Virus record (IMG/VR): IMGVR_UViG_3300036770_002685
Reading direction: 5' to 3' (one strand)
DNA length: 64,000 bases
DNA from: an uncultured virus (IMG/VR IMGVR_UViG_3300036770_002685)
Taxonomy: Duplodnaviria > Heunggongvirae > Uroviricota > Caudoviricetes
Of this stretch, positions 4,367 to 60,476 are shown piece by piece. How positions within the stretch are numbered: position 1 is the stretch's first letter; each line of letters starts with the position of its first letter. The notes under the pieces are model-generated. The model was not told where the DNA came from. It ran no database searches and saw only the letters and a list, made by a program, of their open reading frames with translations. A program made the position numbers and the translations under genes.

Positions 4367-4498
4367 ATGGACCACTACGCACTGCTCTTGGTCATCTCCG
4401 GCATCTTAATCGGGGCCGGGGCCGTGATCGCCCTCGTCACCCTCGTCTTTCTCTTCTGGGCAGGATTCGGCCATGATGAGACGATTAACAAAAAGTAA
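4367..4498 (+). CDS. Small membrane protein (43 aa, not in the ORF track)
   Basis: MDHYALLLVISGILIGAGAVIALVTLVFLFWAG hydrophobic helix. Confidence 0.45.
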   Translation: MDHYALLLVISGILIGAGAVIALVTLVFLFWAGFGHDETINKK

Positions 4499-6713: not shown

Positions 6714-6755
6714 TTTCCGGACGGGCATGTGCCCGGACTATACAGAGAGAGCAAA
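6687..6755 (+). promoter_or_regulatory. Early promoter/leader, copy 1
   Basis: TTGCAA-N16-TATAGT, TTCCGG, CGGGCA/TGCCCG hairpin, TATACAGAGAGA. Confidence 0.7.
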
Positions 6756-6956
6756 ATGGAAAAGACAAAGTTAACCCGTAGCGACGCGGCGATACAGTTA
6801 ATCGCTTTCGCGGACGAAAAAATGGACTTGACTGATCAGGAAGCGGCGGTTGCGTTCGCGTTGGCCGCTTGTTTTTTGGCCGGGGGAAATGCAGAAAATA
6901 TTCTGTCAATTATTCGCTTCGTGTTCGCTACGACGGACGTGATGCGCGAGCCATGA
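6756..6956 (+). CDS. Hypothetical early protein
   Basis: ATG directly after the leader motif. Confidence 0.6.
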   Translation: MEKTKLTRSDAAIQLIAFADEKMDLTDQEAAVAFALAACFLAGGNAENILSIIRFVFATTDVMREP

Positions 6957-7126
6957 TGCGCGAGCGCGAAATCTTACGGGAATGGGCCAAAAGCGAGCGA
7001 TTAAAAAACCTTCAAAAAATGCAACAACGCGAAGCGGAGCGCAATTTACGCGGTTCCGTTTTTCGCGTCGCGCGCATGCTTGTCTTGCACAATTTGATTG
7101 AGTCGCTGTTTGGCCGTAAAAAATAA
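6953..7126 (+). CDS. Hypothetical early protein
   Basis: ATGA coupling. Confidence 0.5.
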   Translation: MMREREILREWAKSERLKNLQKMQQREAERNLRGSVFRVARMLVLHNLIESLFGRKK

Positions 7127-12020: not shown

Positions 12021-15000
12021 ATGGACCGTGATCAGTTGAACGCGTTTATTGCGCGGGATGATGAGCCAGACATGTATGAGGGCTATGCCATGGGCGGTCC
12101 GGTGGGTGAGGACATGGTATCGGACATGCAGCCGGAAGTGAGTTATTTTGCAGAAGGTGGTGAGGTGGATCAGCCACCTGAGAAAGGTTTGTTTAGCCAG
12201 CAGCGTCCGGTGATGCCGCAGGGACGAGCCCCGTTGAAGAGGACGGCGGCGGAGATGTTGCAGCGGATGCCGCAGCAGCAATTAGGGACGATGCGTTTTT
12301 CGCCGTTGACGATGCCGGGGATTGTTGGGCGTCAGGTCCCGCGATTCGCGGACGGTGGTGAGGTGGACTCGGAGCAGCGCGGGTTGATGGCGCAACGGAT
12401 GGACATGGGCGCGCCAGCGGAGAATCTGTTTGGTGCGAACTTGGCGATGCCGTCACTGCCGCCTGCTGCGTCGTTTGAGACGAACGTGCCGACATTCACG
12501 CCAACCTATACACCGCCCACGGGCCCGGTGACAACACCCGGTACGGCGGGAGGTTTGAGTCAGTATCCGGGGTTGGGCGATGGCACGGACTTGCAGTATC
12601 AGCAGAGTTTGTATGAGCAGTTGTCGCCAGCGGCGTTAGCTGCGCCTGCGACGACGTTTACTACAGCAACGGGTTACACGCCCACGGCACAGACGGCGAC
12701 AACGCCGACACTTTTGTCGAGAGAGCAGGCGATGTTGCAGCAGCCGACCTTAGTGCGGTATGAGCCGGAGGCGAAGTTCGCGGGGTTGACCACGTACAAG
12801 GGTCCGTTGCAAACGAGTCCTTATACGGGCGGCACGACGGATGAAACGGGAGTCGTGAAGCCCTTACCGTTGACCACGGACCGTTATGCCTTGTTGGGCT
12901 TTAGGCCACCGACGAATGCGGTGGAAGGGGCGGGTCAGTATTGGTTCAATCCGGCGATGGGCTATGTGTATGCGCCTGCGGGGTATGAGCCGGAGGAGGG
13001 GTCGGGTTGGACGCGCGCTGATGAGCAGGGTGCGGCGCAGCCGGGCACCATTGACTGGACGGACACGAACTTCTTTGCCACGGGTAATTATGCATCGCCC
13101 ACGGAGCAGCCACGCGCGCAGGATTTGACGGACGTGTTCCGGTTGATCGCGGGCAGTGATGTGTCGCAAGCGGCAGCGAATCTGTTTAAGAATCCGAGTT
13201 ATGGCTGGGTGCCTGATCCGACGAACCCGGAGGGTGGCACGTTTAACATGACGCCGGAGGCGGTGAACAACATCCGATCGTCGGACCCGTTCAAGTCGGC
13301 AACCTCGCAGACGCTGAGGAGTTTGTATAGCGAGTTGGGGATGACGCCATCGGAGGAGGACGTCAACGCTTTGACGCAGGCGATTTCGTCGGGTCAGACG
13401 GACATCTTCCGTGTCGCCAATACCATCACTTCGCCCTTGCGCATGTCGGGACAGTTGCAATTAACGCCGGATCGCCCGACGTTGACGAGCATTTATGTCA
13501 ACAGTGGTTTGACGATTCCGGGTTTCTTGAACAAAGCACAGATTGACTCGGCGTATCAGCAGGCGTTGGGACGCAAAGCCGATAACGCGGGCTTGCTGTA
13601 CTACGCGTCTAACCCGACTGTGGCAGGGGCGTTTAAGAGCCCGGCGGACTTGGCAGCGGCGCTTGCAACGTCGCGTGAAGCGCAGGTTCAGGCGGCGTAC
13701 CAGCAGGCCTTTGGCCGTCGCGCGGATGCGGCGGGATTGGCGTACTACACGTCGGGTGGGGGCAAGAACGTTGATCTGGCTCCGGCGCTTGCGCAGTCAC
13801 GTGAAGCACAGGTGCGCCAAGCCTATAGCGACGTTTTGGGTCGCGCTGCAGACACAGCAGGTTTGCAGTACTACACCTCGGGCGCGGGGGCAAACGTTCC
13901 CATTGCACAGTTGAGGTCAGAGTTCACGGGCGGTGAGCGACCGCCTGCGGCCCGTGCGATGGGCTCACCCCCTGAGGGCGAGTATGCGGACCCGGTGATG
14001 CAGCTACTGGCGAGGCAGCGTATGCGACAAGGACCGGGGGCCATGGACCAAGGGTCAGCGAGGGACCGCCTAAAAAAGTTCTTGGGGGGTGAAGACCTCA
14101 CCCCCGTGCGTATGGCGGAGGGTGGCGAGGCAACGAAGGACACAGAGGCGACTGCGCGTGAGTTGTATGCCAAGATTGGGAGAACGGGCGACGCGGTTGA
14201 CGAAAAGGGGTTGAGATATTGGCGAAGCCGTATCCAAGGTAATCAGCAGTCGCCGGAGGACTTGCAGAAGGAGTTCATGGCGGCGGCAGACATTGCCGAT
14301 GATCCGTACTTTGAAGTTAATCGACTGTATCAGCGCGTTGGGCAAACGCCGGACACGGAAGGGTTTAACTACTGGGTAGATCGTGCAAAGCGAGAGAAAC
14401 TATCGCAGCAGAAGTTAGGCGAGCAGTTTATTGGTGGCCTGCCTGCGATCACCGCAGCACAACAGCGTCCGGGCTTTGGCTTAGGTGGTCAGTATGGCAC
14501 CTACAATGGTTTGCCGATGCTGTATGCGCCGGAGGTAGATCGGGTGTTGAGTGGGCGGCAGCGGGTTGAGGGCGATGTCGTCAATCTGGATAACGCGATC
14601 GGCTGGGACCCCGCGTCGATATCGGGTGAGATAGCGCGTGGTGCGGCGTCAACGGGCGTGTATCGCACACCGGTGGGCCCGGCGAATCGGCAGCAGTACG
14701 TGGGCGATCTCGCGGGCGTGGCAAGGCAGTATGGGCTAGACCCGGCACAGTACACGACGACTTCGACGAATCAATACGGTATGCAGTCAAGCGTGTTGAA
14801 CGAGGACGCGTTGTACAACGCGTTGGACGAGAAGTTGAAGGATTACTATGCGGTGCAGGGCTATGTCCCGCCCGCAGGCACAGAGAATTCTGCGTTTAAT
14901 CGTCAGGACATTGGGGGTGACCATGCGCGGGTGATGTATCAGCGTGTGGGAGATCGGTTAGTGCCGATCGAGGAGTCGTTGCAGTATTCGAACATGCAAC

Positions 15001-17549
15001 GTGCGCCGAAGTATAGTTGGACGGACTATCTTGCGCCTGCTGCGATTCTTGCAGCGCCGTTTGCGCTGCCGTATCTTGCGCCGTATTTTACGGCTGCTGG
15101 TGTGGCAAAGGGCGCGGCCATCGGTGCGGGCAAGAACCTAATTCAGGGCAAAGACCCACTCAAAGGTGGCGTGGAAGGTGCGCTAACGAGCTTCATACCG
15201 TCGCCGTTTGCTAAGGGTGGGTTGGTCAAACGCGCCGCAGGCTCCCCCGAGTACGGCGAGATCGCCATCGGCGAAGGCGGGATCACGAAGGACACCATGA
15301 GGGGCTTGAAGTCCAAGAAGGGTGTGGACACGTTCATGACGGATTCGGCGCGGATGCTGCGCAATGTCATGGGTGAGGGTGTATCGAATTTGGAGTCCGC
15401 AGTACGCGGTTCAGTAGCCGCGATCCCCGGATCAGTGGGGGACATCGAGTCGATCTTCCGCGAGAGCGACAAGACGAGGAAGTTCGCGACGACGGAAGAG
15501 GTCTTGCGGGATTACATGCCCAAGCGCATGACTACGCCGACGAAGGAAGGTAAGGGCTTTGAAGAGGTAGGCACTTACCTGCCGTTGCCTGTTCCAGCGG
15601 GCACGATCAGTAAGACGGCTAAAGGTGTGAAGACTGGCGCGCGCCGTGCCTTTGAAGAACTGGGTCCGGTAGCAGCAGGGATGGTTGAAAAGACCGCAGC
15701 AAGGACAGGCGCAGGCCCGATGTATGCGGTCAAGCCCAAGGGTGGGACGTTCTATCCCCCTGAGATGGGTTCTGGTTTGGATACCTACATAGACAGACTG
15801 GTCAAAGGACTATCCCAATCGGAGACTTTGGCAGGTCGGGATGCTAAATCCGTAGCGGACTTTATTCGAACCAAAGGACGTAAGTATTTTACTTCGACAT
15901 TTGGTACGGCGGACGATCCCTTGCGTCTAGCCGTGTCTGAAGGCCGTATGCCGCTGTACGGTTCGGATGACGAACGCTTTAGGGACTACTTGTTGGACGC
16001 TGCGCGCGCGGGCAACCCAAAGGCAGTTAAAGACCTTGAACGTGTTTATGATGAGGCCACACAGCTAGGAGTACAGCTTTATTCTCCAGCGGGCGCGACA
16101 GAGCCCACATACACTTTGGCAAATCGCATAAATGCAGCGCAACGTGCAAAATTGCTTGAGCAAGGGGTGCCAGAGGATTTAATAAACCCAAACTATCCAG
16201 CAGTGAACACTGCCCAGCAGATGGCTGAAACCACTTATGCGGAGGCTAGAAACAAGCTGGGGAAATTATTGAAGGGGATGGAGGAGCTCCCTCCGGAAGC
16301 AAGAGAAGCTTACATGCGCGGGACAGGCAAGGATTTTCAACCCCTGTTATACGCGGCCACCAAGGAAGAGCCTATCTACGACGTCACGCATACGCCGAGC
16401 ATGGACTTTTTAAACCCGCGTAATCTATCAGAAGCAATTGCATCGATTCCTGTAAGTGACCTTGAGCGCATGACGTTCCCTGAGGCAGTGGTCAAGGGAT
16501 CGCAAAACATGCGTATCAAGCGGGATCGTGGGTTGGTCTTGGAAAAGGCAAGGGACGGTAAAACGGTTCCCAAAGAAATTTATTTTGATGGAACCAAGCC
16601 CGTCTATGAGATAGACAAAAATCAGCAGTGGGTGCGTGTCCTGTCGCCTGACGCGGTGGAGTTAGAGGGAGCAGCGATGCGACATTCAATTGGTGGTTAC
16701 AAGACCAGTGATAGCTACAACTTAGGCGGCAGGGATGCGTTTAACTCGGGTCTTGCACGGGTCTTCTCGTTGCGTAACCAGAAGGGTATTCCACAGGTAA
16801 CGGTGGAAGCGAAGTTTACGGACAAAGACGGTTTGTTTATTAAAGAGATTCGATCTAAGTTTAATAGCGAGCCAACGCAAGAAGAGAAAAACGCCGTGTT
16901 CCAGTTGTTTGACACACTGGGCCCAGAAAAGATAGGCTCGACTAAGTACGTAACCAACCGTTCAGGGAATAGCCTGAAAGAAGAAGACCAAGTGACGGTT
17001 AACTGGGGCGACTTGTACAACCAGTACAAGAGCTACAAAGAAGGCACTCAGGGCTTTGCAGGTGGCGGCATCGTTCGAAAGGCAGCACAGGCCTTGACAA
17101 AGATGGGCGCGAAAGAGTCGCAGGTCGCTGGTAAAAAGTTGACTACGCTACAGGACATGCACACTTCGTTAGGCGACAGCGTCCGTGCTCGTGCTGCACA
17201 GATGAAGCAACAAATGGACGAGATGGAGTTTAAGTACAAGCCGGGTCAACGCGTCTTTACTGAGGATTCTGCAAAGAAGAATAAACCGCCTTACCTGATC
17301 AAGTCCAAGCGTCTGTACGGTGACATGATTGTGCGTGATCCTAAGACCTTGAAAGCCATTCGTGATCCGGAAACAGGTAAAGCGCAAAGAACGCCGTATG
17401 AGCCGGGTTACTTAATTCGTGAAGAAAACGGACCGGATGACTGGGCGGAGTATGTTCTGCCTGAGTCCGCGATCAAAGGTTCGGTAGACGAGTTTGCCAA
17501 GGGCGGCAGAGTGGACAAAAAAGCTCCCGGTAAGCGTAAATATATTTAA
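12021..17549 (+). CDS. Giant multidomain (polyvalent-type) protein with DUF4214-like repeats and a PcfJ-like domain
   Basis: 1842 aa; repeats of AYQxxxGRxADxAGLxYY; EGAAMRHSIGGY...VFSLR...PQVTVE; recurring FAxGG. Confidence 0.7.
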   Translation: MDRDQLNAFIARDDEPDMYEGYAMGGPVGEDMVSDMQPEVSYFAEGGEVDQPPEKGLFSQQRPVMPQGRAPLKRTAAEMLQRMPQQQLGTMRFSPLTMPGIVGRQVPRFADGGEVDSEQRGLMAQRMDMGAPAENLFGANLAMPSLPPAASFETNVPTFTPTYTPPTGPVTTPGTAGGLSQYPGLGDGTDLQYQQSLYEQLSPAALAAPATTFTTATGYTPTAQTATTPTLLSREQAMLQQPTLVRYEPEAKFAGLTTYKGPLQTSPYTGGTTDETGVVKPLPLTTDRYALLGFRPPTNAVEGAGQYWFNPAMGYVYAPAGYEPEEGSGWTRADEQGAAQPGTIDWTDTNFFATGNYASPTEQPRAQDLTDVFRLIAGSDVSQAAANLFKNPSYGWVPDPTNPEGGTFNMTPEAVNNIRSSDPFKSATSQTLRSLYSELGMTPSEEDVNALTQAISSGQTDIFRVANTITSPLRMSGQLQLTPDRPTLTSIYVNSGLTIPGFLNKAQIDSAYQQALGRKADNAGLLYYASNPTVAGAFKSPADLAAALATSREAQVQAAYQQAFGRRADAAGLAYYTSGGGKNVDLAPALAQSREAQVRQAYSDVLGRAADTAGLQYYTSGAGANVPIAQLRSEFTGGERPPAARAMGSPPEGEYADPVMQLLARQRMRQGPGAMDQGSARDRLKKFLGGEDLTPVRMAEGGEATKDTEATARELYAKIGRTGDAVDEKGLRYWRSRIQGNQQSPEDLQKEFMAAADIADDPYFEVNRLYQRVGQTPDTEGFNYWVDRAKREKLSQQKLGEQFIGGLPAITAAQQRPGFGLGGQYGTYNGLPMLYAPEVDRVLSGRQRVEGDVVNLDNAIGWDPASISGEIARGAASTGVYRTPVGPANRQQYVGDLAGVARQYGLDPAQYTTTSTNQYGMQSSVLNEDALYNALDEKLKDYYAVQGYVPPAGTENSAFNRQDIGGDHARVMYQRVGDRLVPIEESLQYSNMQRAPKYSWTDYLAPAAILAAPFALPYLAPYFTAAGVAKGAAIGAGKNLIQGKDPLKGGVEGALTSFIPSPFAKGGLVKRAAGSPEYGEIAIGEGGITKDTMRGLKSKKGVDTFMTDSARMLRNVMGEGVSNLESAVRGSVAAIPGSVGDIESIFRESDKTRKFATTEEVLRDYMPKRMTTPTKEGKGFEEVGTYLPLPVPAGTISKTAKGVKTGARRAFEELGPVAAGMVEKTAARTGAGPMYAVKPKGGTFYPPEMGSGLDTYIDRLVKGLSQSETLAGRDAKSVADFIRTKGRKYFTSTFGTADDPLRLAVSEGRMPLYGSDDERFRDYLLDAARAGNPKAVKDLERVYDEATQLGVQLYSPAGATEPTYTLANRINAAQRAKLLEQGVPEDLINPNYPAVNTAQQMAETTYAEARNKLGKLLKGMEELPPEAREAYMRGTGKDFQPLLYAATKEEPIYDVTHTPSMDFLNPRNLSEAIASIPVSDLERMTFPEAVVKGSQNMRIKRDRGLVLEKARDGKTVPKEIYFDGTKPVYEIDKNQQWVRVLSPDAVELEGAAMRHSIGGYKTSDSYNLGGRDAFNSGLARVFSLRNQKGIPQVTVEAKFTDKDGLFIKEIRSKFNSEPTQEEKNAVFQLFDTLGPEKIGSTKYVTNRSGNSLKEEDQVTVNWGDLYNQYKSYKEGTQGFAGGGIVRKAAQALTKMGAKESQVAGKKLTTLQDMHTSLGDSVRARAAQMKQQMDEMEFKYKPGQRVFTEDSAKKNKPPYLIKSKRLYGDMIVRDPKTLKAIRDPETGKAQRTPYEPGYLIREENGPDDWAEYVLPESAIKGSVDEFAKGGRVDKKAPGKRKYI

Positions 17550-20436: not shown

Positions 20437-20907
20437 ATGGAAGCGGTAGAAGAAAAGTTGACAGCGCTTGAGCGGAAATGGCTAGAGGAGGCCCAAAACA
20501 AGGGGCCGACCATTGATGACGTGTTCAACGACGAGGGCAAGCTGCAAGAGGACAAGCTTGACGGTTCGGTTCGTGATCATCTGCCGCATCCTACGGGGTG
20601 GCGGCTATCCATTCTCCCGTATCGCGGCGCTCGTGTGTCCAAGGGCGGCATTGCCTTAGCGGACGAGACGCAGAAGAAGACCCAGCTGGGCACAACCTGT
20701 GGGTATGTGCTGGAAGCAGGTCCTTTGGCCTACTGCGATCAGGAAAAGTTCCCAACAGGACCGTGGTGTCAGCCCGGTGACTGGATCATTTTTGGCCGGT
20801 ATGCGGGTTCGCGCATCCCGATCGACGGTGGGGAAATCCGTTTCATCAATGACGATGAAGTCTTAGGGATTGTGAGTGATCCTGAAGATATTTTGCATCT
20901 GACCTAA
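20437..20907 (+). CDS. groES: Co-chaperonin GroES
   Basis: PTGWRLSI...SKGGIAL...GDWIIFGRYAG...INDDEVLGIV. Confidence 0.9.
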   Translation: MEAVEEKLTALERKWLEEAQNKGPTIDDVFNDEGKLQEDKLDGSVRDHLPHPTGWRLSILPYRGARVSKGGIALADETQKKTQLGTTCGYVLEAGPLAYCDQEKFPTGPWCQPGDWIIFGRYAGSRIPIDGGEIRFINDDEVLGIVSDPEDILHLT

Positions 20908-29274: not shown

Positions 29275-30621
29275 ATGGCAAGTACATATAGTGATTTAAA
29301 GTTTGAACTGATTGCCACAGGAGAGCAGTCAGGCACTTGGGGCACTACGACCAATACCAACTTAGGCACTGCGATAGAACAGGCGATCACTGGTAGTGTT
29401 GATATTACGTTTGCGAGTGCTGATGTCACGTTAACGCTTACTGATACTAATGCTGCACAGAACGCTCGTGCTTTGCGTTTAAATCTGACGGGTACTTCGG
29501 GCGGCGCAAGAAATCTGATCGTACCGGCGATTGAGAAGCAGTACATCGTCAGCAATGGATTGGCAGACGCTGTCACTGTTAAAAACTCTACGGGCACCGG
29601 TATCGCGGTCCCTGCGGGCAAGACAATGGTGGTGTTCAATGACGCAACCAACGTGGTTGATGTGACGACCTATGCGTCTTCTCTGACACTGGGCACTGCG
29701 TTGCCGATCACTTCTGGTGGTACAGGAACAACTTCGACGACGTTTGTAAATCTTGCTTCGAACGTAACAGGCACGTTGCCGGTAGTAAACGGTGGCACCG
29801 GGCAAACCACATACACCGACGGGCAGCTTTTAATTGGTAACAGCACGGGTAACACCCTAGCTAAGTCCACGTTGACCGCAGGCTCTGGTGTAACAATCAC
29901 TAATGGTTCAGGGTCGATTACGATTTCTGCGACAGGATCGGGTGGTGATGCTGTCTTAGCAAACAATAACGCCTTTACTGGTGCGAATACGTTCTACAAC
30001 AATACCGGTCAAACTATTGGAACAGGCACATCGACGCAAGACGGATTGATTCTGGCAGGTCGAGCTGGTGGTAGTTCTTCGTATCGCGTGACATTACAGC
30101 CCACTACTTTAACTGCAAGTAGAACGCTAACCCTGCCAAACGTCACAGATACCATAGCGACAATTGGGTCGCCTCAAACATTCACAGCGTTACAAACTTT
30201 CTCGGGCGCATCCAGTACCCTGTCGTCAAAGTTTCTAAACGCACTTGAAGCTATTACGGTATCTGCTACTGGGGCGACTGGAACGATTAACTATGATGTC
30301 ACTACCCAATCAATCATTTACTATACGACTGATGCTGCCGCAAACTGGACGGTAAACTTTAGAGCAAGTAGCGGCACATCATTAGATTCTGCGATGTCAA
30401 CTGGTGAAAGCATCACATTGGCTTTTCTGGTGACGCAGGGGGCTACGCCGTATTACAACAATGCGGTTCAAATTGATGGCAACGCAGTTACCCCTAAATG
30501 GCAAGGTGGGACAGCCCCAACAAGTGGTAATGCTTCAAGCATAGATGCCTACGTTTACTCTATCGTAAAGACGGGCGCTGCCACGTTTACTGTATTTGCT
30601 TCTCAAACTAAGTTTGCGTAA
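29275..30621 (+). CDS. Tail fibre protein
   Basis: GEQSGTWGTTTNTN N-terminus; LPxxxGGTG repeats; C-terminal KWQGGTAPT...IDAYVY. Confidence 0.75.
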   Translation: MASTYSDLKFELIATGEQSGTWGTTTNTNLGTAIEQAITGSVDITFASADVTLTLTDTNAAQNARALRLNLTGTSGGARNLIVPAIEKQYIVSNGLADAVTVKNSTGTGIAVPAGKTMVVFNDATNVVDVTTYASSLTLGTALPITSGGTGTTSTTFVNLASNVTGTLPVVNGGTGQTTYTDGQLLIGNSTGNTLAKSTLTAGSGVTITNGSGSITISATGSGGDAVLANNNAFTGANTFYNNTGQTIGTGTSTQDGLILAGRAGGSSSYRVTLQPTTLTASRTLTLPNVTDTIATIGSPQTFTALQTFSGASSTLSSKFLNALEAITVSATGATGTINYDVTTQSIIYYTTDAAANWTVNFRASSGTSLDSAMSTGESITLAFLVTQGATPYYNNAVQIDGNAVTPKWQGGTAPTSGNASSIDAYVYSIVKTGAATFTVFASQTKFA

Positions 30622-30630
30622 GAGGAAATA

Positions 30631-33600
30631 ATGCCTATTGTCTCGCGTTTGGCTGCAATGACCTCGCGTGCGTGGGGTCAGTTTAAGGTTACCGCTGCGT
30701 CGTTAGCTGGTAATTATTTATATGTGTGGGGACAAAATAGCTCGGCTGGGAATTTAGGTATTGGTTTGATTTCGGGAAGCGCAGTTGCTCGTAGCTCACC
30801 TGTGGCGGTTGCTATAAACAAAACTTTTGTTGAGGTCGGAGCTAATAGTCATGTCGTAGCGGTTGATTCTTCTGGGCAGCTATGGGCATGGGGGCCAAAT
30901 AGCGTAGGTCAACTTGGGGATGGAACTACTACTGCAAAATCCTCTCCAGTTCAAATTGGAACGCTTACTGATTGGGATCAAATAGAGGTTGCTACACAAT
31001 CAGTTTTGGCAATTAAAACAGATAACAGTTTGTGGGCGTGGGGCGCAAACGGTAGCGGTAGATTAGGAGATGGAACCAGTATTAACAAATCCTCTCCAGT
31101 TCAGATTGGGACGCTTACTGATTGGAGTATTGTTGGGATGGCGTTGGGTAATGCGGCGGCTGTCAAAACAGATGGTACTTTATGGGTTTGGGGAGCAGCA
31201 TCAAGTGGCGCTCTTGGAAATGGAACAACTACTCCAAATGTATCATCTCCCATTCAAGTAGGAACACTAGCAACATGGAGCACAGCCTCTGCGGGGAATA
31301 GTTTTGCTCATGCTATTTCAAATACGGGGAATTTGTGGGGCTGGGGAATAAACACTAGTGGGCAACTCGGGGACGGTACAGCCACGAACAAATCCTCTCC
31401 AGTGCAGATTGGGGCGCTATCGGATTGGAGCGTCATTTCTGCTGGTTCTCTGTCTTGGTTGGCTATAAAAACAGATGGGACGCTTTGGTCTTGTGGATCA
31501 AATATTTATGGGCAGATTGGTGACGGCACAACAACAAACAGATCGTCGCCAGTGCAAATTGGCACTTTGAATACTTGGGTTGAAATTGACATCAATGCAG
31601 AATCTTGTTCTGCCAGAAGGTCAGATGGAACAGTTTGGGTTTGGGGGAGAAATGGGTCTGGTCAACTCGGTTTAAGTGATAGCGCAAACCGTAGTAGTCC
31701 TACTCAACTTGGGACTCGGTCTGATTATACAAAAATTTCAGTGGGAACAGCTTCTTCACTATTTGTAACAAGTGATAATTACAACTGGTCAGCATTTGTT
31801 AATACGGCTAGTGGGCAAATTGGCGCTTCTAGTAACAATACTCCTCTGCCCGTAGCAACACTAACAACAAAGTATGCCGATGTTCAGCGTACTGACAATC
31901 AAATGACCGCTGTTTCTACAGACGGTAAGTTATGGACTTGGGGATTGAATAATGCAGGTCAACTGGGTAATGGCACAACAAATAATGAGTCTTTGCCAAC
32001 TCAAGTTGGAACGCTAACGACTTGGGCGTCAACTACAAAGTTTGGTCAGTCTACACCCGGAGCAATTAAATCAGACGGTACGTTGTGGACATGGGGCTAC
32101 AACAATCAAGGAAACTTAGGCAATAGCACTTGGGGAACGGCAGACCAATATTTATACTTCCCAACCCCTTTTACAGACAGGCAATACTCCGATTTTAGTT
32201 ATGGCACTGCTGCCTACTTCATTTCGAATGGCGCTTTGTATGCGTGTGGCAACAATAACTATTACGAAGTTGGTGATGGCACAACCGTATGGAGAAGCTC
32301 ACCCGTTCAAATAGGCACTCAGACTGATTGGTCAAAGGTGTCTGCGGGTAGTCAATTTGGGCTTGCGATAAAAACGGATGGGACTTTGTGGTCATGGGGT
32401 ATTGAGGCTGGTTTGGTTCAAGGCCCAGAGGTTACAAACCTTGCAAACACTGTATCGTTCTCCTCTCCAGTTTTAATCCCTATTACTTTTGGAAGTTTGC
32501 CAGAAGGAGTTTCATACTTCAATGCGCTTGCCCTTTCCATAAACAACTACATGTTTGCTTGGGGTAGAAATTCAGAATACGAATGTGGTGACGGAACTCT
32601 TACAAAAGTCACTGCCCCAAAAATGATTGGTACATTAACATGGTCACAAACGTCTAGTGGAAACTACCATTCTCTCGCAATTGGGTCAGACAACACGTTA
32701 TGGGCTTGGGGATATAACAATTCCGGTCAACTAGGACTTAACGACACAGACTCAAGATCATTCCCTGTACAAGTTGGAACGCTTTCAGATTACTCAAAAA
32801 TAGCTGGCGGAAGAACGACAAGTTATTTTATTAGAAGTGGTCAGCTTTGGGCTACTGGAGCAAATAATCTTGGACAATTAGGAGATGGGACTACCACTAA
32901 TAGATCATCCCCCGTTCAAATTGGAACATTAAATAATTGGAGTCAAGTTTTTGCTACTGAAGACTGGACTACTTTTGCTATAAAAACCGATGGTACGTTA
33001 TGGGCTTGGGGTAGCAATAATTACGGGCAGATTGGAGATAACACTTCAACTAATAGATCATCTCCAGTTCAAATTGGAACCCTTACAACGTGGGCTACCG
33101 TTTCTAACGGTGGATATAGTGCGCTTGCAGTCAAAAATGATGGAACATTGTGGGCTTGGGGGTATAACGGTAGTGGTCAGCTAGGTGATGGCACTATAAC
33201 GAGTAAATCTTCACCTGTTCAAATTGGCACTCTGACAAATTGGTCAAGGGCGTACTTGGGAACAAGTCACGCGGTTGCAGTAAAAACAGATGGAACCATT
33301 TGGTCTTGGGGAGGTGGTAGTTATGGACAATTAGGAACTGGAAGCACAGTAGCACGGTCTTCGCCAGTTCAAATTGGAACGCTCACCAATTGGACGCAGG
33401 CTGTCGCATCTAACCTTAGAAGTTTTTTCCTAAATACTTCTGGTGAAGTATGGGGTTGTGGGGATAATGTTGTTAGTACCGCTGGTGGCCCATATCCCGG
33501 TCTTGGCCTTTCAGGTGGATTTTTTGCTCCTGTTCCACTTCAAGTTGGCACGGATAATACTTGGGCAGACATTTCGGCAGGTCAGCGGCACTCATTGCTT

Positions 33601-35025
33601 CGTAAAAACGATAAATCGCTATGGTCGGCTGGCGGAAATCAGTACGGGCAACTAGGACAGGGAGATACTGTAAGTAATTATCGTCTGCGTCAGGTTGGCA
33701 CATTAACTAACTGGGACAAACTTGCGGCATCGGGCGGCGCATCCGGCTCTGATGGTTCTTCTTTTGCTATTAAAGACGACAATACTTTGTGGTCTTGGGG
33801 GATGAATACTAATGGTGTTTTAGGTTTAGGAGATACGACAGATAGAAGTAGCCCAGTCCAAATTGGAACGCTATCAAATTGGTCTAAGATAAAACTAGCA
33901 AGTGATGCTGCCGGTGCGATTAATGCCATCAAAACAGATGGTACTTTGTGGGCTTGGGGAAGAAATTCAGATGGTCAATTAGGGCTTAATGACACGACCT
34001 CTAGGTCATCCCCTGTTCAAGTTGGGACGCTTACTGATTGGGCTTATGCTTTTGGTGCATACCAAAACTCTTATTTTGTAAAAACAGACAACACTTTATG
34101 GGCAGTAGGTAAATATTACCAACTTGGCGATGGCACCACCGTAGATAAATCCTCCCCTGTTCAAATAGGCACGGGATATTCGGGTTTACTTGGAGGGTCG
34201 GCATCTGGTGATACTTCTTTTCAAAACATAGGTGTTGGTGTTGCACAGAAAACGGATAACACGATTGCCTCGTGGGGTTATGGCTATGCGGGGCCGAGTA
34301 ATAACTACAGTACACCTCCTGCGTATATTTATTCAACATCAATTTCATCTCCAGTGCAAATTGGCACGCTAACCAATTGGGTATCGGGTAATCTCAAAGA
34401 TGACGGTACTTTATGGACATGGGGTTTAAACCAAGATGGGCAGTTAGGTTTAGGAGATACTTTTACAAGGCTTTCTCCTACTCAAGTCGGCACGCTAACT
34501 GACTGGAGGTATATAGAGGCTTCCTACAATGCCAATGATGGATTTATGGGTGCGTTGCGTACAAACAATACCCTATGGATGTGGGGTAATGGAGTGGGAG
34601 GCCGACTTGGAAATGGTTCAACGGCTGCACAATCTGTTCCTGTTCAGGTTGGTACGTTAACGAATTGGAGCAATATTGCGCTTGGTAACTCACATACGGT
34701 TGCGGTTAAAACTGACGGTACATTATGGGCATGGGGGCTTGGCTCTTCTGGGCAAATTGGAAACGGAAGTACAGCATCTAGGTCTAGCCCAGTGCAAATT
34801 GGAACACTAACTAGCTGGGTAGATGTTTGGGCTACATCCACTACATCCTATGCCATAAAAAATGACGGAACTATTTGGGCATGGGGTCTTGGCACCAGTG
34901 GGCAACTTGGGGATGGCACAAATTCCAGTAAATCCTCTCCAGTGCAGACGGGAACTTTAACTACGTGGGCGGGTGGTATCAAAGGGCCGGGTAACTCATT
35001 TACTGGAGCATTCTCTACCGTATGA
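30631..35025 (+). CDS. RCC1-repeat beta-propeller protein, probable receptor-binding/tail appendage
   Basis: More than 20 repeats of LWxWGxNxxGQLGxG...SSPVQIGTLxxW; follows the tail fibre gene. Confidence 0.9.
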   Translation: MPIVSRLAAMTSRAWGQFKVTAASLAGNYLYVWGQNSSAGNLGIGLISGSAVARSSPVAVAINKTFVEVGANSHVVAVDSSGQLWAWGPNSVGQLGDGTTTAKSSPVQIGTLTDWDQIEVATQSVLAIKTDNSLWAWGANGSGRLGDGTSINKSSPVQIGTLTDWSIVGMALGNAAAVKTDGTLWVWGAASSGALGNGTTTPNVSSPIQVGTLATWSTASAGNSFAHAISNTGNLWGWGINTSGQLGDGTATNKSSPVQIGALSDWSVISAGSLSWLAIKTDGTLWSCGSNIYGQIGDGTTTNRSSPVQIGTLNTWVEIDINAESCSARRSDGTVWVWGRNGSGQLGLSDSANRSSPTQLGTRSDYTKISVGTASSLFVTSDNYNWSAFVNTASGQIGASSNNTPLPVATLTTKYADVQRTDNQMTAVSTDGKLWTWGLNNAGQLGNGTTNNESLPTQVGTLTTWASTTKFGQSTPGAIKSDGTLWTWGYNNQGNLGNSTWGTADQYLYFPTPFTDRQYSDFSYGTAAYFISNGALYACGNNNYYEVGDGTTVWRSSPVQIGTQTDWSKVSAGSQFGLAIKTDGTLWSWGIEAGLVQGPEVTNLANTVSFSSPVLIPITFGSLPEGVSYFNALALSINNYMFAWGRNSEYECGDGTLTKVTAPKMIGTLTWSQTSSGNYHSLAIGSDNTLWAWGYNNSGQLGLNDTDSRSFPVQVGTLSDYSKIAGGRTTSYFIRSGQLWATGANNLGQLGDGTTTNRSSPVQIGTLNNWSQVFATEDWTTFAIKTDGTLWAWGSNNYGQIGDNTSTNRSSPVQIGTLTTWATVSNGGYSALAVKNDGTLWAWGYNGSGQLGDGTITSKSSPVQIGTLTNWSRAYLGTSHAVAVKTDGTIWSWGGGSYGQLGTGSTVARSSPVQIGTLTNWTQAVASNLRSFFLNTSGEVWGCGDNVVSTAGGPYPGLGLSGGFFAPVPLQVGTDNTWADISAGQRHSLLRKNDKSLWSAGGNQYGQLGQGDTVSNYRLRQVGTLTNWDKLAASGGASGSDGSSFAIKDDNTLWSWGMNTNGVLGLGDTTDRSSPVQIGTLSNWSKIKLASDAAGAINAIKTDGTLWAWGRNSDGQLGLNDTTSRSSPVQVGTLTDWAYAFGAYQNSYFVKTDNTLWAVGKYYQLGDGTTVDKSSPVQIGTGYSGLLGGSASGDTSFQNIGVGVAQKTDNTIASWGYGYAGPSNNYSTPPAYIYSTSISSPVQIGTLTNWVSGNLKDDGTLWTWGLNQDGQLGLGDTFTRLSPTQVGTLTDWRYIEASYNANDGFMGALRTNNTLWMWGNGVGGRLGNGSTAAQSVPVQVGTLTNWSNIALGNSHTVAVKTDGTLWAWGLGSSGQIGNGSTASRSSPVQIGTLTSWVDVWATSTTSYAIKNDGTIWAWGLGTSGQLGDGTNSSKSSPVQTGTLTTWAGGIKGPGNSFTGAFSTV

Positions 35026-36035
35026 CAACAGAAACCACCGATCTTGCTTTAGAGGCAGCAATTCAAGGCCATCCAGACATAGCCGAAAACCTGTTGCGGG
35101 AGAAGCTGAAAGAGCACCCCAACGACCCTCGCATCATATTCAACCTTGGTTGGCATGACATGCGGCACGGTAAGCTGCGGCAAGGTTTCAACGGCATGAA
35201 TGCCGGGCGGTTCATCAATGTGTTTGGGTCACCTGCGCTGTCAGGGAAAATATGGGCAGGCGAGGATTTGCAGGGTAAGACCTTATTGTTCAGGTCTGAG
35301 GGCGGTCATGGCGACGAAATCATGAACGTCAGATTTGCTAGAGATTTTGAAGAGCTTGGCGCAAGAACGATTGTTTCCTGCCATCCAAGTTTGATGGGGT
35401 TCTTTTCTGACAATGGATTTACTACCGTATCCACGGCAGCGGCTGAACAAAACCTAGTCTATTACGATTACTGGGTGCCCGGTATGTCTGCTGGATACGC
35501 CATTGGATACGAATACGAAGACATGCAAGGCAAGCCCTATTTGACGGCACCCAAGCGCGATATGTATGAGCGTCCGGGCACGTTAAAAGTGGGCATCAAG
35601 TGGTCTGGCAATCCTCAGTTTGAGCACGAGCAGCACCGCAGGTTCGACCCTGAGATGTTAATCAATTTGCACACTATTCCGGGTGCAACCTTTTATGCGC
35701 TACAGCGGGATCACGACACAAAAGAGTTCCTCCCCTTTGGCGACTTAAAAGATCAGCTTGTAGACTGGAGGGCAACCGCCAGCATCTTATCTAGCTTGGA
35801 TTTGGTAATTACGTCTTGTACGTCGGTAGCTCACTGTGCAGCGGCGTTGGGGGTTGAGACTTGGGTAATCGTGCCTGCGCTCCCATATTACTGCTGGGCA
35901 TTGCCCGGCGATACATCACCTTGGTATGATTCAGTCCGCTTATTTAGGCAGAAGACCTATGGTGATTGGGAGCCTCCATTGCTTGCGGTAAGGCAGGCAT
36001 TAGAGGAAAGGTTGCAACTAAAACAAGCCGCATAA
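35022..36035 (+). CDS. TPR + GT-B glycosyltransferase (GT9/FlmG-like)
   Basis: TPR-like N-terminus; EGGHGDEI, VGIKWSGN, LDLVITSCTSVAHCAAALG, PWYDSVRLFRQ. Confidence 0.8.
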   Translation: MTTETTDLALEAAIQGHPDIAENLLREKLKEHPNDPRIIFNLGWHDMRHGKLRQGFNGMNAGRFINVFGSPALSGKIWAGEDLQGKTLLFRSEGGHGDEIMNVRFARDFEELGARTIVSCHPSLMGFFSDNGFTTVSTAAAEQNLVYYDYWVPGMSAGYAIGYEYEDMQGKPYLTAPKRDMYERPGTLKVGIKWSGNPQFEHEQHRRFDPEMLINLHTIPGATFYALQRDHDTKEFLPFGDLKDQLVDWRATASILSSLDLVITSCTSVAHCAAALGVETWVIVPALPYYCWALPGDTSPWYDSVRLFRQKTYGDWEPPLLAVRQALEERLQLKQAA

Positions 36036-36044
36036 GGAGCTGTT

Positions 36045-36440
36045 ATGAGAAATTCTTGGTGCAAAGTTGAAAATGGGGCTGTGGTTGATGGCCCTCGTGC
36101 GTGGAATAACAACACCCCGCCTGACAATACTTGGTTGCCTCACTTTTTAGAGGACACTGACAACACGGCATACGATCTGTTTGTTGGGTCTCATCATGAG
36201 GTTCGAGGGGATCAGGTGGTAGAGGTAAAAGACTATCGCCCTAAAACCCAAGACGAGATCAATGAAGAGTTGTCGCAAATTAAACGCATGGCTTCAGAGG
36301 CGATAGCTCTGTCAGACACAAAGATCGCTGAAGGTAACAACGTAGACGCTTGGGCTGAGTACAAGCAGGCTTGGTCTGCATACACTGACGTTACCACTTT
36401 GGACAATTCACGAGTATGGCCTACTGAACCTATGGAGTGA
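36045..36440 (+). CDS. Possible tail-fibre assembly protein
   Basis: C-terminal WAEYKQAW...WPTEP resembles fibre chaperones. Confidence 0.5.
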   Translation: MRNSWCKVENGAVVDGPRAWNNNTPPDNTWLPHFLEDTDNTAYDLFVGSHHEVRGDQVVEVKDYRPKTQDEINEELSQIKRMASEAIALSDTKIAEGNNVDAWAEYKQAWSAYTDVTTLDNSRVWPTEPME

Positions 36441-37798
36441 CAATGCACCTTCTTGTCGTGCTGCAAACACATTCAAAAGGAGATAGCCAGCACTATCTCA
36501 AAATGCACGAGATGAAGCGGTATTGTGGTGAAGATAAGCCGGAGGTGACACGACGATGTGTTGCCTCTCTTATCGACACGATGAACCACGCAAAGTCTAC
36601 GGTGCCAAACTTAGAAATAGAACTACAAGTATTTGACGATCATTCTGATGAAGAGTCAGTTGGCTACCTAAAAGCCAATTTGGAGAGAGCAAATTTCCCC
36701 GTACAGCTTGAGCATTTAGAAACATACGGCATCATGCCGTCTATTCTGCGTTGCTATGAGCATGGAAGAGATCACGGTAAAGAGTGGGTATATTTTGCCC
36801 AAGACGATTACCTTTACGACGAAACAGCTATCCATAAGATGCTGAAAGCATCGGTGGAGTTTAGCAATAACATGGGTCGTCCTGTCTCCATCTACCCCTT
36901 CAACGATCCTTATAAATACATGCCAGAGAATGTGGTCGTTCGTAGCCACATCGTTAGATCGTCTGACCGGCATTGGCGCACTCAAATCATGACGGCCTCG
37001 TGCTTCATGACTCATCTATCTGTCATCAAAACTGAGTGGCATTTGTTTGAGAAGATGGGTAAGTCGGAAGTGTCTGGCGTGATGGAAGATGAGTCTATCA
37101 ACCAGTTGTTCAGAAGCAGGGGGTACTACCTATTCGTTCCCATGCCTTCTTTGGCTTTGCACATGCAATACAGCACGGAGTACGATCCGTTCATTGACTG
37201 GCGTGCGTGGTGGGATAAGTACAACAAATCAGACAAGGCAAATATCAATAAAGCCCTAGATTCTGTTTTGAATATTGGGTCTGGGATGTCTTCTGTTCAA
37301 GACGTTCCATACGCTGATGACTTAAAGCACCTGCATGAGTACCGGCTCGACTTGGATAAGCAGTCTAACCCAGACATTGTTGCAGACATTACAGACCTTC
37401 GGTCAATTGAAGATGCTTCTGTAAATGCTATCTACGCCTCTCACTGCATAGAGCACGTTGACTATCATCTGGTAAAGACTTGCATCAAAGATATGCTGAG
37501 GATTACTAAGCCCGGCGGCAAGATTAGGATCATTGTCCCCAACTTAAAAATGCTGGCGGCAAAGATTGCTGATGGTGATCTGCTAGATACTTTGTACATG
37601 AGCGGTGAAGGCCCGATCAGTGCGTTGGATATTCTATATGGGCATCGAGCATCAGTGGCTGATGGCAAGGAAATGATGCGGCACAAGACAGGGTTTACCG
37701 CCAAGTCTATGGGCAGTCTCCTGCAAGAGCTTGGGCTTACGGACTATGTATTAGATGAGCCGGGGTTAGACCTTGTGGTGACAATAAATAAGCCATGA
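36437..37798 (+). CDS. GT-A (GT2-like) glycosyltransferase fused to a class I SAM methyltransferase
   Basis: FDDHS and YFAQDDY; then VLNIGSG, YASHCIEH, KPGGKIRIIVPN. Confidence 0.75.
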   Translation: MTMHLLVVLQTHSKGDSQHYLKMHEMKRYCGEDKPEVTRRCVASLIDTMNHAKSTVPNLEIELQVFDDHSDEESVGYLKANLERANFPVQLEHLETYGIMPSILRCYEHGRDHGKEWVYFAQDDYLYDETAIHKMLKASVEFSNNMGRPVSIYPFNDPYKYMPENVVVRSHIVRSSDRHWRTQIMTASCFMTHLSVIKTEWHLFEKMGKSEVSGVMEDESINQLFRSRGYYLFVPMPSLALHMQYSTEYDPFIDWRAWWDKYNKSDKANINKALDSVLNIGSGMSSVQDVPYADDLKHLHEYRLDLDKQSNPDIVADITDLRSIEDASVNAIYASHCIEHVDYHLVKTCIKDMLRITKPGGKIRIIVPNLKMLAAKIADGDLLDTLYMSGEGPISALDILYGHRASVADGKEMMRHKTGFTAKSMGSLLQELGLTDYVLDEPGLDLVVTINKP

Positions 37799-38184
37799 CC
37801 ATCGTGTTCACAAACGGATGTTTTGACATCTTGCATCGTGGGCATGTGGAGTATTTAAAAGCATCAAGACAGCTTGGGGATAGGCTAATTGTCGGGGTGA
37901 ATTCCGACAGTTCGGTACGGCGGCTAAAGGGTAAAGAAAGACCGTTTAACACGGTTGATGACCGAGTCGCCGTGCTGAAGGCACTGCGTTTTGTAGACCA
38001 AGTTGAGGTTTTTGAAGAAGACACGCCACTGCGCCTAATAGAGCAAATTAAGCCAGACATCATTACAAAGGGAGGGGACTACGAAGAGAGAGACGTAGTC
38101 GGATATGGGATTTCTAAAGTTGTAATAGTCCCATTTTTAAGCGGATACTCAACAACAGGAATTTTGCAAAATGGAAAAAGCTAA
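37795..38184 (+). CDS. hldC: Heptose-1-phosphate nucleotidyltransferase (HldE domain II)
   Basis: FTNGCFDILHRGH, GVNSDSSVRRLKG, KGGDY, GYSTT. Confidence 0.9.
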   Translation: MTIVFTNGCFDILHRGHVEYLKASRQLGDRLIVGVNSDSSVRRLKGKERPFNTVDDRVAVLKALRFVDQVEVFEEDTPLRLIEQIKPDIITKGGDYEERDVVGYGISKVVIVPFLSGYSTTGILQNGKS

Positions 38185-38533
38185 AAAAGAAATAGTGCAA
38201 AAAGGCTGGGGGCATGAAGAGATATGGGCTAGTACCTACGGGTACGCCGCAAAGATTTTGCACTTTAAAGAAGGCGCAAAGTTCTCAATGCACATGCACA
38301 AGGTTAAAGATGAGACTTGGTATGTGTTAAATGGCACGTTTCGATTAGTTGTTATTGATACCAAAAACGCCAAGCATGAAGAAATCATCCTAAACGCTGG
38401 AGACGTCTGGCGAAATCATCCTATGGTGCCACACCAATTGTTTTGCTTAGAAGAGGGCAAGATTATTGAGGCATCTACAGCGGATTCGGTTGAGGATAAC
38501 TACAGGGTCTTGCCGGGGGATAGCCAGCTATGA
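38171..38533 (+). CDS. Cupin, sugar-isomerase-like
   Basis: KGWGHE, SMHMHKVKDETWYV, PHQL metal-binding motif. Confidence 0.75.
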   Translation: MEKAKKEIVQKGWGHEEIWASTYGYAAKILHFKEGAKFSMHMHKVKDETWYVLNGTFRLVVIDTKNAKHEEIILNAGDVWRNHPMVPHQLFCLEEGKIIEASTADSVEDNYRVLPGDSQL

Positions 38534-39267
38534 AAGCGTTGGTGATTGGCGATGGGTGTATTGATGAGTACCGCTATGGCTCAATCAACAGGGTAAACCC
38601 AGAGGCTCCAGTTCCGCTATTGAACTTTACGCACTCCGAGTCTCGGTTGGGCATGGCCTATAACGTCGCTGCTAACTTGGCGGCGTTTGACGTAAAGGTT
38701 GAAACAAATATCCCATCTGAACAATTATCTAAAAAGATTAGATACGTAGATGGTAAGTCTGGTCGGATGCTGATGCGAGTGGATGAGGATGTAAAACCAC
38801 AATCGCTCAGGCATAACGACTACTCAGCCTACGACTTTATTGTTATTTCTGACTACGACAAGGGCTTTTTGTCTTACGAAGACATTCACCAGATACGACA
38901 AAAATTTGATGGCTTAATCTACCTCGACACCAAGAAAAAGTCTCTCTCAAAGTTCAAAGACATTTACATAAAGATTAACAGCGTTGAGTTTCTATCGTTG
39001 GAGTCTAGCCCAGATTTTGAGAACTTGATTGTCACGAATGGGCAGCATGGCTGTTTGCACATGGGTTTGCGGTATGCCGCATCAAAGTCGGATGTCATTG
39101 ATGTCTGCGGCGCTGGAGATACATTTTTGGCGGCATTTGCTTATACCCATTTCAAGACGAGAGACATGAAGCAGGCTTTAGAGATGGCAAATAAATGCGC
39201 TGGGATAGCTTGTTGTCATTTAGGCGTTTACGCTTTGACTAAAGAGGATGTTGAGTGCGTATTCTGA
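38530..39267 (+). CDS. hldA: Heptose-7-phosphate kinase (HldE domain I, PfkB family)
   Basis: RVNPEAPVP, NVAANL, ISDYDKG, DVCGAGDTF. Confidence 0.88.
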   Translation: MKALVIGDGCIDEYRYGSINRVNPEAPVPLLNFTHSESRLGMAYNVAANLAAFDVKVETNIPSEQLSKKIRYVDGKSGRMLMRVDEDVKPQSLRHNDYSAYDFIVISDYDKGFLSYEDIHQIRQKFDGLIYLDTKKKSLSKFKDIYIKINSVEFLSLESSPDFENLIVTNGQHGCLHMGLRYAASKSDVIDVCGAGDTFLAAFAYTHFKTRDMKQALEMANKCAGIACCHLGVYALTKEDVECVF

Positions 39268-40034
39268 TAACAGGCCACAAAGGATTCATTGGTCAAAACA
39301 TGGTCAAGGCTTTGGAAGACCATGACTTGTCTTTGTGTGAGCGCGACGATGGGTACAGCTTAGAGGGTGTGGACAGGGTTATCCACTTAGGCGCTATATC
39401 TGACACTACGTGCGATGACTGGGAGGCATTGAGTTACTACAACTGCGAGTTTTCTAAGGTTCTTATTGACCGCTGCCAAACCTTTGGAATTCCTTTGCAG
39501 ATTGCGAGTTCGGCTTCTGTGTATGGGATTGATAACACAACTTTCCGAGAAGGCGATGTCTGCAAACCAGCGAACTTGTATGCCAAATCCAAGCTGTTGA
39601 TTGAGGAGTACGTTAGAGGGTTAGATGTAAAGGCACCAGTTCAATTGTTTAGGTACTTTAATGTTTATGGGCCTCATGAAGACCATAAGGGGAATCAAGC
39701 GTCGCCTTTCCATAAATTTGAGCAGCAGGCTAAATCTGGTGTGATTACTGTATTTGAAAACAGCGGAAGTTACCGGCGAGACTTTATCCATGTGGAAGAG
39801 ATCATTCGCCTACACAAGCGGTTTTTTGAAATCAATGAGTCTGGGGTATGGAACTTTGGCACGGGTAAGACACTTAGCTTTTTGGAAATAGCTGAGACGT
39901 TTGCCAACAAATACAGCGCCGTTATTAAAGAAATACCGATGCCTCAAAACTTAGCAAATAAGTATCAAAAATACACGAAAGCTGCTTTGTCTAAATTGGA
40001 AAAAACTTTTGATAATGAAGCACTTACATTATGA
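39255..40034 (+). CDS. hldD: ADP-L-glycero-D-manno-heptose 6-epimerase
   Basis: TGHKGFIG, HLGAISDT, YAKSK, RYFNVYGPHEDHKG, RDFIHV. Confidence 0.87.
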   Translation: MRILITGHKGFIGQNMVKALEDHDLSLCERDDGYSLEGVDRVIHLGAISDTTCDDWEALSYYNCEFSKVLIDRCQTFGIPLQIASSASVYGIDNTTFREGDVCKPANLYAKSKLLIEEYVRGLDVKAPVQLFRYFNVYGPHEDHKGNQASPFHKFEQQAKSGVITVFENSGSYRRDFIHVEEIIRLHKRFFEINESGVWNFGTGKTLSFLEIAETFANKYSAVIKEIPMPQNLANKYQKYTKAALSKLEKTFDNEALTL

Positions 40035-60231: not shown

Positions 60232-60476
60232 TGGATATCCTCGAACTGCAAAAATTTAAAGCGGCTGAACTAGGCATCTGCACTACATGGCATGGCGATC
60301 AACTGGTTGAACGTTTGATCTACGACGGCCTGCACATGGTCATGATCCTAATGGACGAAGACAGCATGGGAGACCTCGAAGCGGCTGAATACATCGAACG
60401 CGAGTTCGTATTCAAGTACGCAGGCGACACCCAGCCCATCATCCTCTGGAAAAACTCCGACGATGAAGATTCATAA
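60231..60476 (+). CDS. Hypothetical protein
   Basis: EAAEYIE...YAGDTQPI; coupled ORF. Confidence 0.6.
   Translation: MDILELQKFKAAELGICTTWHGDQLVERLIYDGLHMVMILMDEDSMGDLEAAEYIEREFVFKYAGDTQPIILWKNSDDEDS

Follow-up and report, generated by a model that had tools for sequence, protein, structure and literature searches.

The 64,000-nucleotide stretch analysed here (the window) makes up nearly the whole of a 64.5-kb tailed-phage contig (IMG/VR record IMGVR_UViG_3300036770_002685) and carries, directly after its tail fibre gene, a cassette of eight genes. The conserved core of this cassette is an RCC1-repeat propeller protein paired with a glycosyltransferase (GT) bearing tetratricopeptide repeats (TPRs), not heptose synthesis. 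The RCC1-GT module is real and widespread and is apparently undescribed; no account of the pair was found in the openly readable literature. A virion protein is probably the acceptor, whatever the sugar, and, given such an acceptor, the donor is probably heptose. The combined reading that we favour, at somewhat less than even confidence, is a late-operon system which glycosylates the phage's own tail appendage with heptose as the first sugar. The fibre gene and the cassette are laid out as follows.

29275..30621, + strand: tail fibre, context and alternative acceptor (phrog_31660 tail fiber, phrog_5906 C-terminal domain; 29.0% Ser+Thr)
30631..35025, + strand: RCC1-repeat protein, 1464 aa, about four seven-bladed propellers, putative tail appendage and glycan acceptor (PF00415/PF25390)
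35022..36035, + strand: TPR and GT-B glycosyltransferase with a GT9/TibC-like fold (alignment, model, fold searches, Atlas neighbours)
36045..36440, + strand: tail-fibre assembly chaperone-like protein (PF16778, Phage_tail_APC, weak, E 0.0045, under cut-off)
36437..37798, + strand: GT2-like domain fused to an S-adenosylmethionine-dependent methyltransferase, candidate for chain extension and methylation (PF08241; PF00535 in relatives)
37795..38184, + strand: HldC-like heptose-1-phosphate nucleotidyltransferase (TIGR02199, E 3e-51)
38171..38533, + strand: cupin, proposed non-homologous sedoheptulose-7-phosphate isomerase replacing GmhA (PF07883; invariant residues; co-occurrence)
38530..39267, + strand: HldA-like heptose-7-phosphate kinase of the PfkB type (TIGR02198, E 5e-35; phrog_8133)
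39255..40034, + strand: HldD-like NDP-heptose 6-epimerase (TIGR02197, E 3e-58, against 5e-20 for GalE)

All eight open reading frames (ORFs) are intact, on one strand and in the order and at the coordinates that an earlier note on this DNA had given. Nine bases separate the fibre and RCC1 genes, and six of the seven junctions within the run overlap, the seventh being a 9-base gap. The cassette is indeed AT-rich, as that note had claimed (45.8% GC; 53.8% for the remainder of the window), but the GT gene alone reaches 50.5%; the RCC1 protein was rightly called rich in Ser and Thr (23.7%), and the fibre is richer. The gene identities proposed there fit at the level of families, but all three hld genes fall below curated cut-offs, the chaperone match is weak, and GT2 (PF00535) is visible only in relatives of the 36437 gene, whose window copy matches the methyltransferase PF08241. 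PF16778 is clearer in relatives of the chaperone-like protein (E 1e-13 in locus L025, 2e-5 in BUCT-ZZ01). No cassette protein has a strongly hydrophobic segment (maximum 19-residue hydropathy 1.58), and no membrane protein or flippase was found in the cassette. Promoter-like sites number 11 against 19 by chance, i.e. below chance.

The pairing was followed in 74 GT loci from IMG/VR, not dereplicated, and in 70 RCC1 loci from the best 80 of 234 matches. RCC1, which in the window copy comprises 21 PF00415 stretches, is present in 67 of the 74 GT loci and lies at most two genes away in 61; of the seven loci without it six are truncated at a contig end, which leaves L066 as a real exception. Conversely, the GT is present in 57 of the 70 RCC1 loci, and 12 of the 13 others touch a contig end, L243 being the clean exception. 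The link between GT and RCC1 genes suspected in the earlier note is thus borne out from both sides. The pair occurs in the podovirus-like lineage of the window, in T4-like phages beside neck genes, and in three GenBank viruses (BUCT-ZZ01, S-SRM01 and AG-345-E08). The gene after the pair is chaperone-like in 42 of the GT loci and a similar small gene in 18. Recurring accessories in these loci are GT25 (42), adenosine 5'-phosphosulfate (APS) kinase (23) and Methyltransf_24 (21), with UDP-galactopyranose mutase (10) and GT32 (9) being rarer; nearly all are enzymes that build or decorate glycans. Most relatives, a point beyond the earlier note, fuse a sulfotransferase to the GT, the sulfotransferase motif forming the start of 39 of 45 long GT versions. 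Such fusions with an APS-kinase-like gene suggest a sulfated product in those relatives. The fusion with an APS-kinase-like gene near by was seen in L027, L040, L103, L127 and many others, and is absent from the window. Genes resembling GIY-YIG or NUMOD3 homing endonucleases lie directly 3' of the GT gene in L090, L092, L098, L107, L111, L121 and L127.

Pfam alone detected a weak TPR in the GT, PDB sequence searches returned TPRs only, and the PF01075 profile gave no match in the protein itself, while PF01075 is found in 13-69% of the members of nine of ten neighbouring Atlas cluster rows. A model built from 65 sequences (pLDDT 93) has two TPR-like helical pairs, residues 3-65 forming four helices that match TPRs, and a GT-B core. 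D98, within E-G-G-x-G-D, and H271 are invariant across the 65 sequences; D98 stands directly after strand 87-91, the first N-lobe strand of the model, and is a candidate catalytic base, which we presume, without residue-level superposition, to be the counterpart of WaaC Asp13. Foldseek ranked TibC first (E 2e-5) and WaaF second. A wide fold search (VIA) returned WaaF (Z 16.3, root-mean-square deviation 3.2, 236 aligned), a Veillonella GT9 (Z 16.2), TibC (Z 15.7, deviation 3.0, 241 aligned), WaaC (14.8) and a plant NDH subunit (13.1), while the best other GT scored Z 9.9; T4 beta-glucosyltransferase and FlmG were not among the fold matches listed. The fold comparison that the earlier note had proposed for 35022..36035 therefore brought out matches to TibC, WaaF and WaaC, but membership of none of these families.

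The GT profile matches 39,198 representatives, which places the enzyme in a large bacterial superfamily of TPR-GTs. Against 16 genomes from the genus to which a Caulobacter bin belongs, the profile matched uncharacterised TPR-GTs strongly (E 1e-32 to 1e-51) and a 596-aa FlmG-like protein weakly (E 1.6e-15), which we take to be FlmG by its length and a neighbour resembling an acetyltransferase. A 30-row tree, midpoint-rooted with limited outgroups, placed 20 phage GTs on one side of a branch (SH-aLRT 100) and four FlmG-like plus six other Caulobacter rows on the other. Calling the enzyme FlmG-type, as the earlier note did, is apt for architecture and homology but not for clade: the GT is a distant FlmG homologue with a heptosyltransferase-type fold, outside the WaaC/WaaF, TibC and FlmG families. 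From the model, it may work as a GT9-fold transferase with a protein-binding head.

The system resembles the BAHT enzymes (TibC, AAH) in its GT-B catalytic fold, its ADP-heptose supply and a GT gene beside that of a repeat-protein adhesin with regularly spaced Ser. Unlike them it is phage-encoded and partnered with a beta-propeller, and the GT, at about 12% identity, has TPR helices where TibC has an N-terminal beta-barrel (residues 1-97, as described in PMC4358343) and lacks TibC's four-Cys iron finger, its own cysteines lying at 120, 266, 272 and 291 with only C266 conserved at 90%. With FlmG, the Caulobacter flagellin O-glycosyltransferase, it shares TPR and GT-B parts, homology and a common E-x-G-x-G-D motif, but it forms a separate clade and has roughly two TPRs where FlmG has a domain of 313 residues. 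FlmG, the nearest characterised homologue by sequence, is described as binding flagellin via its TPRs and transferring pseudaminic acid (PMC7591256), and is a precedent for a protein acceptor. The GT9 enzymes WaaC and WaaF are top structural matches (Z 14.8 and 16.3) and Atlas neighbours carry PF01075, but identity is 13-14%, and the phage GT has extra TPRs and a tail-module context. The cyanomyovirus 'LPS' (lipopolysaccharide) clusters of P-SSM2, S-SM2, S-CAM1 and S-SSM7 (PHROGs 7878, 7851 and 8133) have the same hldC, cupin, hldA and epimerase, that of P-SSM2 likewise lying between fibre-like genes; unlike the window, P-SSM2 and S-SM2 lack the GT family. Mycobacteriophages also use phage-encoded GTs on the virion, but they are phages of Actinobacteria and the targets are capsid and tail tube. 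We know of no link of mycobacteriophage virion glycosylation to heptose, sulfate or RCC1. That mycobacteriophage GTs decorate capsid and tail-tube proteins is described in PMC12619734 and PMC12801897.

A candidate acceptor site lies in the RCC1 blades. Among 260 GT-linked RCC1 proteins with 1615 scored blades, Ser-Ser precedes the blade proline in 1480, compared with 0 of 54 blades in 12 unlinked bacterial and phage RCC1 proteins, hand-picked from 67 listed matches; in the RCC1 protein of L243, which has no GT, Ser-Ser-Pro occurs in 0 of 6 blades. In the linked blades Thr, although it dominates positions -6, -5 and +7, is rare at both Ser sites (8 and 15); for the second Ser both codon families occur (1061 TCN, 513 AGY). 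Within the window the Ser-Ser-Pro motif occurs 19 times in the RCC1 protein and not in the fibre or capsid. TibC is described as modifying Ser and not Thr (PMC4358343). The RCC1 protein may be a particle component and the sugar acceptor.

As regards the donor, the best families for hldC, hldA and hldD are TIGR02199, TIGR02198 and TIGR02197, respectively, with scores short of the curated cut-offs (173/181.5, 121/345 and 198/275). HldC carries the (F/L)XXGXSTT motif described in PMC11461863, with Tyr instead of Arg at position 5. A Lys follows the NVYG..E motif in 66 of 79 HldD-like proteins. We presume that this residue corresponds to E. coli Lys178. The earlier note had HldA, HldC and HldD make ADP-heptose; this was incomplete, as the pathway also requires the GmhA (SIS) isomerase and the GmhB phosphatase, neither of which was found in the window. 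Heptose is likely the donor in the window phage.

The absent isomerase step, which the earlier note did not address, is probably filled by the cupin, and we regard replacement of GmhA by this protein as rather likely from its sequence and context. The isomerase and the phosphatase are the only steps common to the ADP- and GDP-heptose routes, and conversion of sedoheptulose-7-phosphate to heptose-7-phosphate is the seven-carbon analogue of the cupin phosphomannose isomerase reaction. Among cupin loci (best 80 of 374), 78 have an hld gene and 16 a HAD or GmhB-like gene; 38, from many lineages, lie in a tail module of the window type, always at the same slot, 26 of these showing GT or RCC1 and 12 being truncated. 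No gmhA was found in 48 related records, six of which are at least 90% complete. New here is that the cupin accompanies phage heptose kinases one-to-one, never GmhA: the 35 GenBank phage records with the cupin (many duplicates, about 19 viruses) comprise 31 with HldA and 4 aquatic ones with HddA, and none of the 13 GmhA-holding phage records is among them. Caulobacter phage Cr30 and three gut contigs have HddA with a true GmhA and without the cupin, and in Bellamy the cupin lies between HddA and HddC.

Five cupin residues are invariant in 40 sequences (H41, H43, K46, E48 and H88; His-x-His-x2-Lys-x-Glu ... His), which we take to be the metal site of cupin ketol-isomerases, as are the basic residues K11, K28 and R112. 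The protein matches PF01050 (E 4e-7). Its fold matches CapF (Z 15.3), an archaeal phosphomannose isomerase (14.2) and lyxose isomerase (13.6), with unrelated cupins tying at 13.5-14.1, and hence does not discriminate an isomerase from other cupins. In Atlas cupin clusters a minority of members bear the name of mannose-6-phosphate or lyxose isomerase. The labels 'cysteine dioxygenase' (phrog_7851) and 'nucleotidyltransferase' (GenBank) fit the cupin context poorly. No description of a role of the cupin in heptose synthesis was found in openly readable papers. GmhA is present in 3 of 5 bins holding cupin contigs, on other contigs, several of the cupin contigs looking viral; L176, L177, L179 and L180 combine tail or neck genes with hld clusters in bacterial genome bins and are probably mis-binned viruses. 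In P-SSM2 and S-SM2 the cupin adjoins a gene labelled 'phosphoheptose isomerase', which had appeared to refute the proposal; it actually encodes a 103-114 aa HAD phosphatase (TIGR01689 best match), annotated at L172:8676-9020 and at L173:5050-5361 and 6691-7020 (P-SSM2, S-SM2). These phosphatases are candidates for the GmhB step. An SIS gene of S-SRM01, considered as GmhA where the cupin is absent, was dropped, its matches being arabinose-5-phosphate isomerases.

Several observations weigh against heptosylation of RCC1 blades. Thr or Ser before the proline is common in unlinked RCC1 proteins too (Thr at -1 in 23 of 54 blades), the S-SRM01 protein has Ser-Thr-Pro, and the linked set is redundant and closely related, so that Ser-Ser may reflect ancestry or structure. 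The hld genes occur in 12 of 74 GT loci (33 clearly lack them, 29 being undecidable) and in 5 of 70 RCC1 loci, and GTs 82-88% identical differ in having them or not. The complete relatives G089 and G102 lack hldC. BUCT-ZZ01 and S-SRM01, cultured cyanophages which we take to have been isolated on Synechococcus, have RCC1 and GT and no hldA or hldC, and to our knowledge Synechococcus LPS is without heptose. P-SSM2 and S-SM2, conversely, carry hld and no member of the GT family. FlmG uses pseudaminic acid, so the GT fold does not fix the donor. In the complete genome G019, 0 of 56 ORFs of at least 130 aa match a Pfam GT family (105 of 110 ORFs submitted), which counts in favour of the heptose reading; Pfam is, however, blind to the TPR-GT, so that further unseen GTs are possible there, and G026 has two GT2 genes.

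On the GT tree hld presence changes at least 11 times, counted over 36 rows that have the genes and 40 that lack them, with 43 undecidable rows left aside. Among 34 records whose cassette lacks hld, one carries a HAD-cupin-hldA-hldC cluster at another place and two hold an unrelated transferase-cupin fusion. The nucleotidyltransferase-cupin fusions at L292:1132-1908 and L293:1138-1923 belong to T4-like phages, where nuclease and sigma-like genes flank them, a setting unlike that of the hld cluster. The hld genes are one exchangeable add-on, absent from some complete phages with the GT. The linkage of hld to fibre genes expected in the earlier note holds in so far as hld recurs at the same position in many lineages, but it is optional; its idea of a heptose-decorated tail gains from the heptosyltransferase-type fold and the RCC1 link and loses by this optional supply and by the sugar that FlmG uses. 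An optional donor booster is the simplest reading of hld, with a different donor in some clades as an alternative.

That alternative can be widened into a rival in which the GT glycosylates the virion (RCC1 or fibre) with another first sugar, while GT2 attaches the hld product further along the glycan, or that product has an unrelated use. It would accommodate the scatter of hld over the GT tree, the cyanophages with RCC1 and GT alone, the position of hld-bearing L139 as sister of hld-free BUCT-ZZ01, and the FlmG precedent. We nevertheless think it rather unlikely, as 20 of 34 hld-bearing cassettes have no other recognisable GT between TPR-GT and hld genes, the solved structures closest in fold belong to ADP-heptose users or GT9, and optional hld could stem from host-made ADP-heptose. 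Still less probable is that the GT and the GT-linked RCC1 are tied otherwise, for instance with the GT as a folding or assembly partner, in a post-fibre variable island of unrelated sugar genes. The highly variable accessories, homing endonucleases at the site and lower GC speak for such mixed cargo; the invariant catalytic-type residues D98 and H271, and accessories that nearly all concern glycans, speak against it.

Remodelling of the host LPS core or surface, for superinfection exclusion or grazer avoidance, with RCC1 a merely co-inherited receptor-binding protein, is in our view about as improbable as mixed cargo. As fold matches WaaF and WaaC are on a par with TibC, a host-LPS role was proposed for the P-SSM2 'LPS genes' (PMC1079782), and hld clusters of large phages also lie away from tail genes. 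This rival is hard to reconcile with a cassette that gene overlaps lock into the tail module, promoter-like sites at no more than chance frequency, no integrase among the ORFs scanned and no membrane protein or flippase, and it leaves the near-obligate RCC1 link and the TPRs unexplained. In 38 hld-bearing large-phage records, all fragments and none 90% complete, no member of the GT family was found, and in three large-phage loci (L122, L142 and L151) hld lies beside a gene with a PF01075-matching representative. These three loci have a sugar C-methyltransferase with hld and GT9, L122 and L151 also GT17 and a dehydratase; a carbamoyltransferase repeatedly adjoins the hld cluster in T4-like phages (L172, L136, L144, L147 and L155). 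Transfer of heptose to phage DNA as an anti-restriction hypermodification has a precedent in a phage GT-B reported to heptosylate 5-hydroxymethylcytosine, but GTs of that kind resemble T4 beta-GT and are encoded next to a 5-methylcytosine dioxygenase and a C5-methylase (bioRxiv 2023.12.21.572611). Neither partner was matched among those ORFs of the window that reach about 90 aa, and the cassette lies in the tail module and carries TPRs, which makes this explanation highly improbable.

Returning to the favoured explanation of tail-appendage heptosylation, gene content, folds and linkage are observed, and from them we infer every later step. While the particle is being assembled in the host cytoplasm, the TPR-GT would recognise the RCC1 propeller protein and add the first sugar to serines of the Ser-Ser-Pro linker in each blade, after which the GT2-methyltransferase would extend and cap the chain; relatives would instead add sulfate, GT25 or GT32 sugars or galactofuranose. 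For the donor, the cupin would isomerise sedoheptulose-7-phosphate, HldA phosphorylate the product, a host phosphatase provide the GmhB step, HldC form ADP-heptose and HldD epimerise it, whereas phages that lack hld would rely on host-made donor or on a different one. The sugar coat may tune adsorption or adhesion, or shield the appendage. A general proposal, advanced more tentatively still, is a form of O-glycosylation in aquatic phages in which this phage-specific TPR-GT clade heptosylates the Ser-Ser-Pro linkers of all RCC1 blades, swappable add-ons (sulfotransferase and APS kinase, GT25, GT32 or GT2, methylases, galactofuranose) diversify the coat in the manner of an O-antigen, and the cupin replaces GmhA in ADP and GDP clusters.

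Elsewhere in the window, terminases, portal, capsid, adaptor, a GH19 lysin and a DNA ejection protein were matched. Relatives have SU10 adaptor and LPD38/39 domains, so the window phage is probably a short-tailed podovirus. No integrase was matched among the window ORFs scanned, and window scans gave no match to a DNA polymerase. A weak repressor-like helix-turn-helix occurs at 4473, a GroES-like co-chaperonin in the head module at 20437-20907, and a 1842-aa gene with DUF4214 as sole match at 12021-17549 in the terminase-portal interval. The UvrD-like helicase at 60463-62787 has an intein-like stretch at residues 275-497 (PF14890, under cut-off).

The reason for viral NDP-heptose synthesis is called unsolved by authors of heptose work (PMC11573728). 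For the sugar clusters of cyanophages, modification of host LPS has been the published reading since 2005 (PMC1079782). Commentaries on Tang 2024 tell of a viral heptose isomerase, kinase and nucleotidyltransferase with no phosphatase, and of a role left open. The cassette offers a concrete acceptor, site and enzyme to test, and two cultured cyanophages hold the core pair. If the proposal is true, heptose synthesis would have two unrelated enzymes for its opening step, the cupin being the second, and database labels would be corrected. Virion glycosylation would extend to abundant aquatic phages of Gram-negative hosts, in which sulfated or methylated coats could shape host range, adhesion and grazing.

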